From NCBI GenBank assembly GCA_038319475.1, contig JBBQDF010000001.1, positions 1-37,934 of the forward strand: 37,934 nucleotides of DNA, written 5' to 3'. Within the stretch, counting starts at the first letter, position 1; every line of letters starts with the position of its first letter. Both the position numbers and the translations under genes were made by a program. The DNA is from Thermoanaerobaculia bacterium (GTDB taxonomy: Bacteria; Acidobacteriota; Thermoanaerobaculia; UBA5066; Gp7-AA6). The notes beneath the pieces were generated by a model. That model did no database searches. It was not told the origin of the DNA and saw nothing but the letters and a program-made list of their open reading frames with translations. Positions 25,958 through 29,729 of the stretch are shown one piece after another.

Positions 25958-26104
25958 TTACCGACCCAAAGGGACTCCGTGCAGCAGCGTCGCGAGCAGG
26001 CCCGTCCAGAACATGATTCGGCCGATCTCGTTCAACTTCGCGTTCAGCACGAGCACATACATCAACAGGCCGACGAGGCAGACGATCGCGGGCAGATAGA
26101 GCAT
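25958..26104 (-). CDS. 48-aa two-TM membrane protein
   Basis: ATG 26104 follows GGGAGGA. Product: MLYLPAIVCLVGLLMYVLVLNAKLNEIGRIMFWTGLLATLLHGVPLGR. Confidence 0.45.
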   Translation of the reverse strand: MLYLPAIVCLVGLLMYVLVLNAKLNEIGRIMFWTGLLATLLHGVPLGR

Positions 26105-26117
26105 GTGATCCTCCCGA

Positions 26118-27953
26118 TTAGTTCGGCACTCCGAGCCCACTCGTCGGAATGACGATGAAGGCTGTGAACTCCGGCGCGGTCGTAACGACCGTCGTTTCGC
26201 TCCATCCGTTGGGCTGCGCGCCCGTGTGGGTCGCGGCTGACGTGTCGAAGGTGAACGAGACGCCCGTCGAGAACGTCCCCGACTGGATCGCTCCGAGCCC
26301 CCAATTCAACCCGTCATAGACGTCGAACGTCTGGCCGGAGAGCATGCCGCAGGAGTCGATATTGATCGCCTTCGTGCTCGTCGGCGTGTTCGGCCGATAG
26401 ACGTAGATGTTGCAGCGGCCCTTCTCGTAACGGTTCGGGCGAATGAAAGGGGCGGGGCTCGCCGCCGCTCTCCACTGCGCGTTAGTCTGGTAGAGGTTGC
26501 CGCTGACGCCGGAGGCCGGGCAGGTCGTGCAGTTGACGATCGGCGTCGAGGCGATGATGGTGTTGCCCGTGAAAATCTCCCCGGTGATCGTCTGTGAGAG
26601 AAGTCCGCCGCCAAAGCCGCCCGTGCTCTGGTTCGCATCGGAAACGTGATACTCGTTTTGGATTCTCGGCAAGTACGCGCCCGCGTCATATCCGACGTTG
26701 ACCGTCGAGGTCGCGCCCTTTCCAGTCGTCATAGCGTTGTAGGTGAAATTGTTCCGCAACGTGCCTCCCTGCGAGGGATGCCCGACGTTGCCCGTCCCGA
26801 CGAGAAAGTTGTAGGAGCGGGTCAGGTAGCGGGCCAGCAAGCCAGGGTTTACGGAGAGGTTTCCCTCCGCCGTTTCCCAATCGACGTTTCCGCTGGAGCT
26901 GTAGACGTGGAGGTCGTTGTTCCAGTTGTCGTGCATGATGTTGTCAAAAAAGCGCCGATTGCCAACGATGTTCTGCGAGTAGACGGCAACGCCGCGATTG
27001 TTCGACTGCGCGATCGTCGTGTGCGCCGTCGCGGTGCAGCCGCCGGAGAAGTTGACGATGGGTGGCTTGGAGACTTGAGTCGCGTAGCCGTCCCAATAAA
27101 GCGAGCCACAGGTGCCCGGATACGCGCCGCAGTCCATGCCGTTGGCCTGATAGCCGGAGGAGGTCGCGGCCGTAAACCCGGTGACCGCGCCGCCCGACGT
27201 TGTCGCGGTCGGAGCCACTGCGCCGGTGCCGGTCGTATCGCCCGAAGCGGCCGTAAAGGAAACCACCGTGCTCGTGCAACCGGCTCCGCCCGTGTCGAGA
27301 AGAACGCCGCTCACATAGGCCGGCGTGCCGTCGTTGCCCATGTGGAAGAACTGGCTCCCGTAGATTTCCCAGCCCGTGCCCGAGTCGGCCCCGAAGATCG
27401 AGAGGCCGCTCGTCAGGTTGTCAACAACGCAGTTGATGATGCGGTTATTGATGTACGGCCCGCCGCCGGAATGGGAGTAGAGGCCGCCGGAGCGCGTCAA
27501 GCCGTTCGAGTAAGACGACGGCAGGGGAACACCCTCGCGGCGCGTCTCGGTGCTCGAGGACGTGAAGCGCAGGCCCCAAAGCCAGACGTTCGAGGCGAAG
27601 AATTCGACCGCGACGCGGCCGTCCGTGATCGTCGAGGCGGCGAAGTCGATCACCGGGAACTCGCCAGGATAGGCGCGGTAGACGACCGGGGCCTGAGCCG
27701 TTCCCGACTTCGAGAACTGAAGCATCGGGTTATTGCCGAGCCCCGCGGCGGGTAGCGAGTACGTCCCGCCACGCAACCAGTAGGTGTCTCCGGCGGCCGA
27801 AGGGCCACAGGTGCCGTTCTTGGCCGTCGCGATACCACACGGGGACGCCTTGGAGCCCGTCGTGCCAGAGCCCGAGGTCGACACGAACCAAGTCGCCGCA
27901 TCGGCCTGCCCGGCCGCGAGAAGAAGCGTGAGAGCGAAGAGGGCTTTCTTCAT
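26118..27953 (-). CDS. secreted right-handed beta-helix (pectate-lyase-fold) protein, putative polysaccharide depolymerase
   Basis: MKKALFALTLLLAAGQADA|ATWFVSTSGSGTTG...GDTYWLRGGTY has the N-terminal pattern of DUF1565/beta-helix proteins. Repeated NxxI/V...G turns are present. The junction with the upstream gene is GTGATG. Confidence 0.7.
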   Translation of the reverse strand: MKKALFALTLLLAAGQADAATWFVSTSGSGTTGSKASPCGIATAKNGTCGPSAAGDTYWLRGGTYSLPAAGLGNNPMLQFSKSGTAQAPVVYRAYPGEFPVIDFAASTITDGRVAVEFFASNVWLWGLRFTSSSTETRREGVPLPSSYSNGLTRSGGLYSHSGGGPYINNRIINCVVDNLTSGLSIFGADSGTGWEIYGSQFFHMGNDGTPAYVSGVLLDTGGAGCTSTVVSFTAASGDTTGTGAVAPTATTSGGAVTGFTAATSSGYQANGMDCGAYPGTCGSLYWDGYATQVSKPPIVNFSGGCTATAHTTIAQSNNRGVAVYSQNIVGNRRFFDNIMHDNWNNDLHVYSSSGNVDWETAEGNLSVNPGLLARYLTRSYNFLVGTGNVGHPSQGGTLRNNFTYNAMTTGKGATSTVNVGYDAGAYLPRIQNEYHVSDANQSTGGFGGGLLSQTITGEIFTGNTIIASTPIVNCTTCPASGVSGNLYQTNAQWRAAASPAPFIRPNRYEKGRCNIYVYRPNTPTSTKAINIDSCGMLSGQTFDVYDGLNWGLGAIQSGTFSTGVSFTFDTSAATHTGAQPNGWSETTVVTTAPEFTAFIVIPTSGLGVPN

Positions 27954-29062
27954 CACGAGGTCGGCGCGACGAAGGTGTCGAAAAAGACGGAGATCCGGAC
28001 GACGCCGGTCGCCGCGCCGGGCGTCGCGTTGGGGGTGATCCGAATCTTGACCGCCGAGGTCTGCACGGGGCCAGCCGCCGACGTATTCGTCGGGTCCATG
28101 TGGAGCAGGCCGACCGCCGTGGTGTTCGCGGCAACCGCTACGCCCGTAGCAAACCGCGCGGGAGTTGTCGCATCGCCGACCGTGAACGTCGCGGCGGTCG
28201 GGATGGCGGTCGTGACGCGGACGACGACGGCACGAATGATGGAGTTGGCCGGGAGCAAGTTGCCGACCGTGTCGGTAGATGTCGCGGCGGCGATTGTCAA
28301 GAGCTCGTTGATCTCGCCGCGCTGCCAGTATTGGCCGTTGCCGGTGCCGCCCGGGCCGACGTAGATATTCTTGACCGAGTTGGCCGTGGAGCCGAGGTCC
28401 TTCGATCCGTTGGGAACCATAGACGAAGCACCCATAGAGAAGATGGACGCGCCTCCGATCTGGAACCGAATGTTGTTGTCGGAGCCGAGGTTGAGCCCGT
28501 TCTCCGTCCCGGTGCCGCCCTTCGTCGAGAGAATCTGAACTTGGTTTGACCCCTGCGCGAAGTTCACCGCGAGCTTGTGGTAGTTGACCGGAGTCGTGTC
28601 CGAGTCCGTCGTCTCGTAAATTTCGAACGCCTGGTTATTCGTCAAGGCGATCTCGCGAATCGTGTTCGCGCCCGAGGGGCGCAGGTTGGCGAGGTCGAAG
28701 GTGAGCGTTCCGGCGGCGAAGCGCGGGAGACCTGTGACTCCGGAAACGTCCTGACCGAACGCGCCCTGCGTCAGCGGGAAGGTGCCCGAAGTCACGTCGC
28801 CTGCCGCGTGGGTGTGGACGCCGATCTGGGCCGCCGCAATCGTCGTGATGCCCTGAATGGTCGTGGCGTTGGTCCACTGCGCGATCTGGTTGGCGACGGG
28901 GGTCCCGCTGATTGCCACCGCGCCGCCACCACCGCCGCCGGGGGTGTCGATGCGTTTCGCCGCAGAAGAGGCGATGATCGCGGCCGATTGCTGTTGAGCA
29001 AGGCCGCTCGAGGAAACAAGAAGGGCGGTCAGAGCCGCCAGGATCAGCGCGGTTTTTTTCAG
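27953..29062 (-). CDS. signal-peptide, tail-fibre-like protein (369 aa), apparent CTG start
   Basis: The track ORF starts at GTG 28918. Forty-eight open upstream codons encode LKKTALILAALTALLVSSSGLAQQ..., a Sec signal peptide, with no ATG/GTG/TTG. CTG 29062 overlaps the TGA of a mini-ORF (ATGAGCTGA). The HTHAAGDVTSGTFPL motif resembles phage fibre proteins. Confidence 0.6.
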   Translation of the reverse strand: MKKTALILAALTALLVSSSGLAQQQSAAIIASSAAKRIDTPGGGGGGAVAISGTPVANQIAQWTNATTIQGITTIAAAQIGVHTHAAGDVTSGTFPLTQGAFGQDVSGVTGLPRFAAGTLTFDLANLRPSGANTIREIALTNNQAFEIYETTDSDTTPVNYHKLAVNFAQGSNQVQILSTKGGTGTENGLNLGSDNNIRFQIGGASIFSMGASSMVPNGSKDLGSTANSVKNIYVGPGGTGNGQYWQRGEINELLTIAAATSTDTVGNLLPANSIIRAVVVRVTTAIPTAATFTVGDATTPARFATGVAVAANTTAVGLLHMDPTNTSAAGPVQTSAVKIRITPNATPGAATGVVRISVFFDTFVAPTS

Positions 29063-29096
29063 CTCATATACCCGCCTTTCTCAGGGTCGCCCCCGA

Positions 29097-29729
29097 TCAC
29101 CAAATCCGAGCGTTGCCCCGATACGCTTCGATCACGCCGTAGATGCTCCCCGCGGACCACACGCTCACGCGGATCCGCACGACGCCGGTACACGGGACGC
29201 TCCAGAGCTCCCCGGTCGCGGACGGAGCGACAATCGACGCGGCGATGAACGAAGGCGTGGGAGGCGCGACACGGTTCGGGTCGGTCGAAGCGTTGCCCGT
29301 CGGGTTAGCGCTCTGCTCGATCACGACCGTCGAGCCCGCGGCACCTGCGAGACTCCACACCTGCGCGAAGCAGCGATCCGCTTGCGAAACGTCGTACCAA
29401 GCAGAGGTGTACGTGGCCGTTGCGCCGAGCGATTGGATCGTGCCGCCCGCCGTATACGCGCCATTCCCGACCGAGCCGGAAAGCGTGCACGTCGTTCCTG
29501 AGACGGCCGAGCATTGCCAGAGCCCATTTGCGGCCGTGTTGCCCTGGACGCCCGCCACCACCACCCAGTCGTTGATCGCGAACGTGTTCGCCGCGTCGGT
29601 GACGACGATCGGCGACGCGTTGGTCGCATTCGAGATCGCGAGCGACGGACCCCGCAGCGCCGAGACGGCCGCCTCCGCCGGGAGCGTCAGTCCGAGAGCA
29701 AGAGCCAGAGCGAGCAGAAACTTTCGCAT
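29097..29729 (-). CDS. signal-peptide protein with a fibre-type module (210 aa)
   Basis: ATG 29729 follows TAGGAGAAA. MRKFLLALALALGLTLPAEA|AV is a signal peptide. FAINDWVVVAGVQGNTAANGLWQCSAVSGTTCTL is shared with the 16498..17970 fibre gene. Confidence 0.6.
   Translation of the reverse strand: MRKFLLALALALGLTLPAEAAVSALRGPSLAISNATNASPIVVTDAANTFAINDWVVVAGVQGNTAANGLWQCSAVSGTTCTLSGSVGNGAYTAGGTIQSLGATATYTSAWYDVSQADRCFAQVWSLAGAAGSTVVIEQSANPTGNASTDPNRVAPPTPSFIAASIVAPSATGELWSVPCTGVVRIRVSVWSAGSIYGVIEAYRGNARIW

Follow-up and report, generated by a model that had tools for sequence, protein, structure and literature searches.

Predicted Sec signal peptides on fibre-like and beta-helix proteins encoded between the portal-like and scaffold-like genes of an Acidobacteriota phage

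The question raised by this locus is why a tailed phage should keep genes for apparently exported proteins, built from fibre-like and beta-helix modules, in the midst of its head genes. The locus is part of contig JBBQDF010000001.1 of a Thermoanaerobaculia bacterium (Acidobacteriota), and the window analysed here is this one entire 37.9-kb contig from a 75%-complete metagenome-assembled genome (MAG). In the textbook view, the particles of tailed phages are assembled and armed inside the host cytoplasm, and a depolymerase is freed only by lysis. All genes at issue were on the minus strand, in the order large terminase, portal-like gene, gpA, gpB, gpC, gpD, scaffold-like gene and major capsid gene. 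An earlier note, made from the sequence alone, had described four genes between portal and scaffold and had offered two readings of them, either that fibres or depolymerases of the phage are routed through the Sec pathway or that fibre parts were built into a surface-remodelling or exclusion module. All four open reading frames (ORFs) were found, tightly coupled on the minus strand and filling positions 25958−29729. The second reading fits best and the first appears improbable. We read the cassette as an accessory module, expressed together with the late genes, whose products are exported through Sec and act on glycans without forming part of the virion, an interpretation that we judge about equally likely to hold or to fail.

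The first gene, gpA (29729−29097, minus strand), encodes 210 amino acids and begins with the leader MRKFLLALALALGLTLPAEA, with predicted cleavage before AV. It is followed by gpB (29062−27953, minus strand; 369 amino acids with a CTG start at 29062), with the leader (CTG)KKTALILAALTALLVSSSGLA and predicted cleavage before QQQ, and by gpC (27953−26118, minus strand; 611 amino acids), with the leader MKKALFALTLLLAAGQADA and predicted cleavage before AT. The last gene, gpD (26104−25958, minus strand), encodes 48 hydrophobic residues and matches the mini membrane protein of the earlier description. The three leaders were parsed as MRK-FLLALALALGLTL-PAEA, (M)KK-TALILAALTALLV-SSSGLA and MKK-ALFALTLLLAAG-QADA, with cleavage before Ala, Gln and Ala, respectively. 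Each has the charged n-region (Lys/Arg), the uncharged core of 10−15 residues (a Leu/Ala core of 12−13 in these proteins) and the small residues at −3/−1 that characterize type I signals, the cleavage motif being A-x-A or G-L-A. Neither a lipobox Cys at +1 nor a twin arginine was present in any of them. The claim of three Sec signal peptides is supported by these tripartite leaders, that of gpB requiring the CTG start.

Further features of these proteins were consistent with export. Leader character was conserved in all four gpA orthologs (43−57% identity) though the leader sequences had diverged. Cys73 and Cys81 were invariant only among the signal-bearing gpA orthologs, other residues occupying these positions in signal-less proteins with the same domain, and the cysteine content of gpA and gpC was 1.8−1.9% compared to 0.1−0.4% in the capsid and large tail proteins. 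In one ortholog (locus L115), the signal was followed by a Pro/Thr-rich linker of ~95 amino acids resembling the linker of a secreted protein on a contig of the host MAG (C96). Among the gpB homologs P0019−P0137, the pattern [AGS]-Q stood just past the hydrophobic core in 34 of the 39 with a signal and in 13 of the 80 controls; it is, as far as sequence can tell, a host-type signal peptidase I signature. An N-terminal Gln rule has been described for Bacteroidetes signal peptidase I substrates and was seen on Porphyromonas phage genes (PMC10367356). The pattern found here, similar to the ‘glutamine at +1’ so far described for Bacteroidetes, occurs in phages of soil bacteria, and two secreted proteins of an Acidobacteriota prophage (G014) likewise exhibit it. 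Overall, the evidence favours genuine Sec signals on gpA, gpB and gpC.

The stop codon of the portal-like gene overlaps a GGAG sequence, and the gpA ATG lies 11 nucleotides after that stop. The gpB stop and gpC start overlap as TGATG, GGGAGG precedes gpD, and the scaffold gene is preceded by a 79-nucleotide gap containing GAGGAG. From this co-orientation and translational coupling with the portal-like and scaffold genes, production with the late proteins is most likely. A scan for sigma-70-like consensus sequences, with acidobacterial and other non-sigma-70 promoters outside its coverage, revealed no promoter within the cassette, and no convincing terminator was found at its borders. The GC content at third codon positions (GC3) of the four genes was 0.81−0.88, compared to 0.78−0.87 in the neighbouring genes, a phage-like value that ruled out a recent foreign origin. 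Classical morons bring a promoter and a terminator of their own, often deviate in composition and code for lipoproteins or proteins of the outer membrane that have no relation to virion parts. None of these genetic marks was seen in the cassette, which moreover differs from classical morons in being built from fibre modules; it does share with them a position between conserved neighbours and its absence from relatives. Lambda lom and bor are morons with exported products inside late operons, that is, signal-bearing envelope proteins that are variably present between structural genes. None of the PADLOC anti-phage defence models matched gpA−gpD.

To place the cassette among related phages, the major capsid protein was used as the query, which returned 375 relatives from genome contigs and a further 12 from IMG/VR, almost all of them prophages in MAGs of Acidobacteriota/Terriglobia. 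The ORF caller was noisy in high-GC DNA (it missed a known gene of 498 amino acids), and only gap lengths and one hand-checked prophage, G014, were used. The premise that portal and scaffold genes are normally adjacent did not stand. Across the 73 loci with both portal and capsid genes in order, the interval between them ranged from 1.4 to 6.6 kb (5.2 kb in the present phage), and only ~31, those with the shortest intervals (from 1.4 kb), had room for the scaffold alone, the remainder carrying cargo. This variation in length marks the interval as a cargo slot. Relatives of gpA−gpD (E 1e-4) were found in none of 93 related loci sharing the portal, capsid and tail genes, and the four genes are neither part of the tail module nor conserved with the virion as virion fibres would be. 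Judged by these comparisons, the cassette is a probable lineage-specific accessory to the virion module, inserted in a variable slot of the head-gene block.

In G014, whose portal is 38−40% identical to the present one, the slot held unrelated cargo on the opposite strand, consisting of two genes with PilZ and receiver domains and one for a signal-bearing TonB_C protein (L012, 8474−9385, 10978−11907 and 12109−13605, minus strand), situated between the portal, scaffold and capsid genes. Cargo of this type suggests cyclic di-GMP-linked host manipulation from the same hot spot. Similar-sized opposite-strand ORFs recur in the slot of many relatives, the caller being too noisy for counts.

The closer relatives exist as metagenomic contigs only. 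In L110 (capsid 78% identical), the order was portal, gpA ortholog, a 218-residue membrane/signal protein with a terminal K1-lyase_C tailspike domain, an 87-residue protein, scaffold and capsid. In L111 (capsid 49% identical), the gpA ortholog after the portal was followed by a 142-residue signal protein with K1-lyase_C, a 133-residue signal protein, scaffold and capsid. The L112/L113 locus (gpA 51% identical), for which there was no upstream sequence, contained the gpA ortholog, a 597-residue gpB ortholog and the start of a signal-bearing beta-helix. In L115 (gpA 43% identical), the gene order was portal, gpA ortholog, an HNH-type gene and scaffold. All four gpA orthologs were signal-bearing, and three lay between portal-like and scaffold-like genes. 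From these arrangements, signal-bearing gpA appears to be the constant lead gene of the cassette and the genes after it exchangeable; in the closer relatives they are swapped and yet, by prediction, again signal-bearing with fibre or tailspike ends. The HNH endonuclease-like ORF of L115 (2245−2817, plus strand) is a further sign that the slot accepts insertions.

The domain content of the cassette was analysed gene by gene. In gpA, the signal peptide (residues 1−20) is followed by an FCCH-type beta-barrel at ~30−101 and a beta-sandwich at ~107−210, and the predicted mature N-terminus lies ~9 residues ahead of the barrel, leaving no virion-anchor domain. Structure prediction, which had been put forward as a check, was applied to gpA and gpB. 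The AlphaFold2 model of gpA had a mean predicted local distance difference test score (pLDDT) of 82 and matched the ubiquitin E1 FCCH domain in Foldseek (E 7e-4). Among predicted viral structures, the modelled barrel was met again in phage fibre, baseplate and gpJ-type proteins, with names such as tail fibre, baseplate wedge, gpJ and Mtd-N. The C-terminal domain of gpB was modelled as a jelly-roll. The ‘NGLW module’ reported as shared was identified as a paralog of the first domain of gpA within p514, a signal-less fibre-like protein of 514 amino acids encoded by the same phage (domain at 17113−17331, minus strand; tblastn 45% identity over 73 amino acids; Pfam E1_FCCH, E 2.7e-4). A shared origin of the beta-sandwich domains of gpA, gpB and p140, a tail-module protein described below, was rejected by BLASTP and hhalign (all probabilities <1%).

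For gpB, the signal peptide is followed by a Gly-rich linker, a fibre-like stretch and a C-terminal jelly-roll at ~245−369, and the tail-fibre motif HTHAAGDVTSG was located at residues 82−92, as had been noticed. On the question of an anchor domain, the fibre-like proximal stretch remains after the predicted cleavage. The jelly-roll was modelled confidently (AlphaFold2 pLDDT ~90), and its best Foldseek chains were in capsid entries of Pam1, KHP30 and GP4 (E 7.6e-6 to 1.6e-3, TM ~0.46−0.50 on the target), with a baseplate-tail complex entry also among the top matches. Identity over the C-terminal ~125 amino acids, the part common to the 259 gpB homologs, reaches 78%. In phages whose capsid types are unrelated (SU10-like, Gp13-like and that of the present phage), this domain was 70−78% identical, which argues against capsid-specific binding. 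By sequence and model, the tip looks like a host-directed binding domain and not a capsid-specific anchor.

The N-termini of the gpB homologs were of more than one kind. Of 119, 39 were signal-peptide-like, and many others were tail-fibre-like by eye. Two signal-less homologs were looked up and both lay in structural modules of unrelated podophages; signal-bearing homologs also occurred in phage contigs. On a quick tree of the C-terminal domain, the signal state changed at least 18 times, compared to 30−36 for shuffled labels, the count being inflated by tree error in a domain of 128 residues. Taken from such sequence data, the swap between signal and no signal on this tip domain clearly seems to have happened many times. 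One signal-bearing homolog, of 514 amino acids, is encoded by a phage with an SPP1-type portal (L107, 10001−12118, plus strand) and is followed by a GDSL/SGNH esterase gene. This pair, an apparently exported fibre tip and a carbohydrate esterase, lies between the terminase-like and portal genes, near the packaging genes.

The pectate-lyase-type beta-helix that had been proposed for the cassette was recovered in gpC by profile searches, and gpC is predicted to be a secreted-type right-handed beta-helix of a polysaccharide-lyase/hydrolase-like family. Residues 4−129 matched the NCBIfam model PelN (family PL9; E 5.9e-12, far below the equivalog cut-off), with the N-terminus aligned from profile position 10 on. 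A profile of gpC and 41 homologs matched the PL9 rhamnogalacturonan lyase 5olq (E 1.6e-11) and PL6 alginate lyases, the alignment with the solved lyases spanning the N-terminal part only. A strong Pel9A match from a first alignment (A3) was discounted, that alignment being dominated by true PL9 enzymes. The 1115 gpC homologs fell into two blocks, 1−210 and 318−606. Between these, residues 211−317 form an insert of ~105 residues rich in Cys, Gly and Thr that is missing from family members of ~480 amino acids, and the C-terminal domain follows. The Pfam family Beta_helix was matched by 23 of 42 homologs, and a few homologs carried dockerin or type IX secretion system (T9SS) sorting domains; 97 of 149 homologs were signal-peptide-like. 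The family-invariant residues include N174, H178, D179 and E196. Predicted mature gpC begins directly at the beta-helix cap (ATWFVSTSGSG), with no anchor domain ahead of it.

Two tandem full-length, signal-bearing gpC paralogs of 484 and 512 amino acids were also found on contig C96 of the host MAG (G000, 760−8090). The product of the adjoining gene begins with MCGIAG, which we take to be typical of glutamine-dependent asparagine synthases. Also beside the paralogs are a gene resembling those of phosphopantetheinyl transferases and one for a secreted protein that has a long Thr/Pro/Asn linker and, at its C-terminus, a hydrophobic anchor whose last residues are RRNG. In an unrelated phage-like contig (L006, Logan SRR16915453; 6965−11845, plus strand), three consecutive signal-bearing genes follow the capsid gene and encode proteins of 665 and 345 amino acids and a 614-residue beta-helix, 42% identical to the N-terminus of gpC. 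The 665-residue protein was listed as XepA in precomputed Pfam hits, and a fresh Pfam scan did not recover the match.

Based on these observations, the following sequence of events is proposed. The host Sec machinery would export gpA, gpB and gpC, signal peptidase I would cleave them, and gpD would stay as a small membrane protein. The signal peptide would occupy the place of the virion anchor in front of an FCCH-type barrel (gpA), a widely common jelly-roll tip (gpB) and a PL9/PL6-like beta-helix (gpC), and the three proteins, freed into the periplasm or onto the envelope, would not be incorporated into the particle. There, gpA and gpB may bind, and gpC may cut, host surface polysaccharide. 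Receptors would thereby be destroyed or masked, so that progeny might escape matrix and debris and other phages be excluded. Export and cleavage themselves, their timing, the substrate and the benefit are what we infer from the observed gene anatomy, the signal features and their conservation, the domain relationships and the variable slot. An accessory, non-virion role is preferred because mature gpA and gpC lack an anchor, because the replaceable second gene may code for as few as 142 residues, and because gpC belongs to a secreted-enzyme family. The phage also keeps a fibre-like protein, p514, and large tail-module proteins, p554 and p398, that are signal-less, which supports the same conclusion. 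The surface-remodelling or exclusion module of the earlier note gains from the variable slot, from the absence of the cassette in the 93 relatives and from the gpC family, whose members are mostly signal-bearing bacterial carbohydrate enzymes and include paralogs in the host MAG.

Several observations weigh against this interpretation. The rule used to assign signal-peptide-like N-termini was a crude one, and some of the 29 ORF calls translated from the window are doubtful, though by this rule only 4 of these ORFs (gpA, gpB, gpC and p140) were signal-like and the adjacency of three of them does not look like chance. The gpB signal peptide is present only if translation begins at the CTG at 29062. 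The public gpB cluster, P0018 (321 amino acids), begins at the GTG at 28918 and is leaderless, the region dependent on the CTG being 28919−29062, and GC3 in the leader was comparatively low (0.69). The CTG start is supported by the L112 ortholog, which has an ATG at the equivalent place and a leader, MKKTLAALILALFAVGGLAQ, that aligns with that of CTG-started gpB. Moreover, gpB has no cysteines, and the Pfam scan of gpC itself was empty. Coupling to the head genes with no promoter of their own is equally expected of structural genes. Proteins released into the periplasm would, in addition, need to cross the outer membrane. Finally, no copy of the gpB C-terminal domain was found by tblastn among the phage's own tail genes, so that masking of its own receptor is unsupported and the exclusion of other phages fits better.

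The fourth signal-bearing protein, p140, adds a further difficulty. It has 140 amino acids (20421−20843, minus strand), is encoded between an adaptor-like gene and a tail gene of 817 amino acids, and begins with the signal peptide MKRFLLPFALALGLLAVAPRPADA, with predicted cleavage before AV. Most of its 46 homologs start at about residue 25 of p140 (MAIAIT..., MPITIS...), right after the predicted cleavage site, and in most of them no hydrophobic leader was found in the upstream frame. The leader was observed only in the present phage and its closest relative, L110, where it co-occurs with the gpA cassette. Searches of p140 against Protein Data Bank (PDB) profiles and PHROGs returned nothing usable. 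That a conserved tail protein gained a signal in the same sub-lineage is odd if the exported proteins are all non-virion.

The main rival to a module acting late in infection is lysogenic conversion, in which the same exported proteins would serve the lysogen by trimming its own exopolysaccharide or biofilm matrix or by blocking the adsorption of other phages. The two differ in timing and beneficiary only, and we consider lysogenic conversion rather unlikely. It draws on the host-directed, opposite-strand cargo in the slot of relatives (PilZ and receiver regulators, TonB_C) and on the chromosomal gpC paralogs in the same MAG. Signal peptides are present on 5% of soil prophage carbohydrate enzymes (PMC13507307), and the exported, tailspike-like enzyme WceF trims exopolysaccharide (PMC7949094). 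Unlike the cargo of relatives, however, the cassette has the orientation of the late genes and is tightly coupled to its portal-like and scaffold neighbours, and its composition is phage-like. Several phages have kept gpA beside the portal, as would be expected of a phage gene more than of one captured recently. The lack of a detected promoter or terminator is weaker counter-evidence, because acidobacterial promoters were outside the scan.

Next to be weighed is whether gpA, gpB, gpC and p140 are virion parts that would leave the cytoplasm through Sec, mature in the periplasm and be added, at or after lysis, to a particle built in the cytoplasm, which is the Sec-routed fibre of the earlier note and which we regard as improbable. 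The p140 data are among the best arguments for it, the signal being present here and in L110, absent from the relatives examined and co-occurring with gpA. In the same direction, the gpB C-terminal domain is also found at the end of proteins without a signal that are encoded in structural modules of other phages, gpB itself is similar to short homologs that lack a signal, gpA has a domain in common with the fibre-like p514, the genes are coupled with structural genes, and in searches of the phage proteins no recognizable receptor-binding domain or depolymerase was found besides the cassette. Set against this, the cassette is missing from the 93 relatives with the same virion module, the second gene is replaced by proteins of 142−218 amino acids, seemingly too small for anchored fibres, an N-terminal anchor domain is missing from mature gpA and gpC, and p514, p554 and p398 do without signals. 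To our knowledge, no tailed phage assembles via a periplasmic route.

A role in lysis or egress, with the exported proteins and gpD breaching the envelope or capsule from within, appears very unlikely. The idea follows what was proposed for XepA, which is exported late and supports lysis (PMC6834076), and the signal-bearing trio of L006 ends in a gpC-like beta-helix, the XepA listing of its lead protein not having been recovered in the fresh scan. Within the cassette, gpD has one clear and one shorter hydrophobic segment and a weak resemblance to Phage_holin_2, but at 18.4 bits it was far under the family cut-off of 32; its neighbours are gpC and the scaffold gene and not an endolysin, no counterpart was found in the related cassettes, and family searches of the cassette proteins detected no peptidoglycan-hydrolase domain. 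Most improbable of all is that the hydrophobic N-termini are uncleaved helices for membrane tethering or for contacts between proteins in the cytoplasm, as the lower GC3 and the CTG start of the gpB leader might suggest, given the canonical n-h-c leaders with small −3/−1 residues, the conservation of their character while sequence diverged, the Cys pair, Pro/Thr linker and [AGS]-Q signature, all of which indicate export, and the alignment of the gpC N-terminus with the PelN model from position 10.

The preferred reading, an exported accessory module made with the late genes, was compared with known systems. XepA, from the defective Bacillus subtilis prophage PBSX, is exported while the phage develops and does not occur in the particles (PMC6834076). 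As is likely for the cassette proteins, it is produced late; its gene lies among or next to structural genes, and it has beta-sandwich/jelly-roll-type domains (PMC6834076). No sequence similarity was detected between XepA and gpA or gpB, and XepA is a pentameric dumbbell encoded beside lysis genes in a Gram-positive element, whereas the cassette occupies a portal-scaffold slot in a phage of a Gram-negative host and includes a beta-helix. Llp of phage T5 and the Cor proteins are Sec-exported phage envelope lipoproteins that inactivate the receptor, preventing superinfection and non-productive adsorption (PMC9586334). They are of ~60 amino acids, block a TonB-dependent transporter from its periplasmic side and are unrelated to fibres (PMC9586334). 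The cassette differs in its signal peptidase I-type signals, its fibre and tailspike modules and its probable glycan targets, and receptor blocking by it is conjectural.

Two cellular systems are similar in architecture. WceF of Pantoea stewartii is, like gpC and its chromosomal paralogs, an exported, tailspike-like right-handed beta-helix, and trims the exopolysaccharide of its own cell (PMC7949094). It is chromosomal, exported by the twin-arginine translocation (Tat) pathway, trimeric and of solved structure, whereas gpC is phage-encoded, of Sec type and known from sequence alone. The MAT fibres of Bdellovibrio bacteriovorus resemble the cassette in combining a signal peptide with tail-fibre or tailspike parts and exchangeable C-terminal tips (PMC10769870). 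These tips are beta-sandwich, tumour necrosis factor-like or lectin domains and serve surface recognition (PMC10769870). MATs are cellular proteins of ~1000 amino acids that have an N-terminal domain of ~130 amino acids in common and often also an S74 chaperone; the phage-encoded gpA and gpB have 210−369 amino acids and no S74. Phage genes with host-adapted Sec signals have been reported in Porphyromonas phages (PMC10367356) and among soil prophage enzymes (PMC13507307), neither study covering fibre-derived exported proteins or a conserved cassette beside the portal gene. No published description of signal peptides on phage tail parts was found in the literature.

The pattern that emerges is of a family of abundant Acidobacteriota soil phages that repeatedly fits fibre tips, tailspike ends and a beta-helix with predicted secretion signals in the position of a virion anchor. 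If these are exported helpers, they would represent a phage route to the destruction or masking of surface-glycan receptors for which we found no description in the literature, with a bearing on phage movement through polysaccharide-rich soil biofilms and on surveys of prophage carbohydrate enzymes. If they were virion parts, assembly of a tailed-phage particle would take place partly beyond the cytoplasm, and the assembly pathway would need revision. As test objects, gpB (369 amino acids), gpA (210 amino acids) and the 142-residue mini-proteins of relatives are small and tractable.

The phage GenBank collection was searched with the window DNA and the portal-like protein, and IMG/VR with the portal-like protein and with gpA, in each case with no match; likewise, no PDB match was obtained for the tail proteins p514 and p554. 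The large terminase gene (Pfam Terminase_6N) lies directly before the portal-like gene (29741−31861, minus strand; 706 amino acids), which has homologs in 74 related loci. The portal-like protein matched nothing in Pfam, PHROG, NCBIfam or PDB profiles, nor an SU10-type portal by hhalign, and its label is a provisional one, given solely for position after the large terminase, size and conservation. The scaffold-like gene (24551−25879, minus strand) encodes an acidic protein with a Pro-rich N-terminus and lies immediately upstream of the capsid gene; it occupies the same place in relatives, with weak sequence conservation. The major capsid protein (23262−24533, minus strand; phrog_14242) was ~50% identical to its 375 counterparts in prophages of Acidobacteriota and other MAGs and 78% identical to that of L110.

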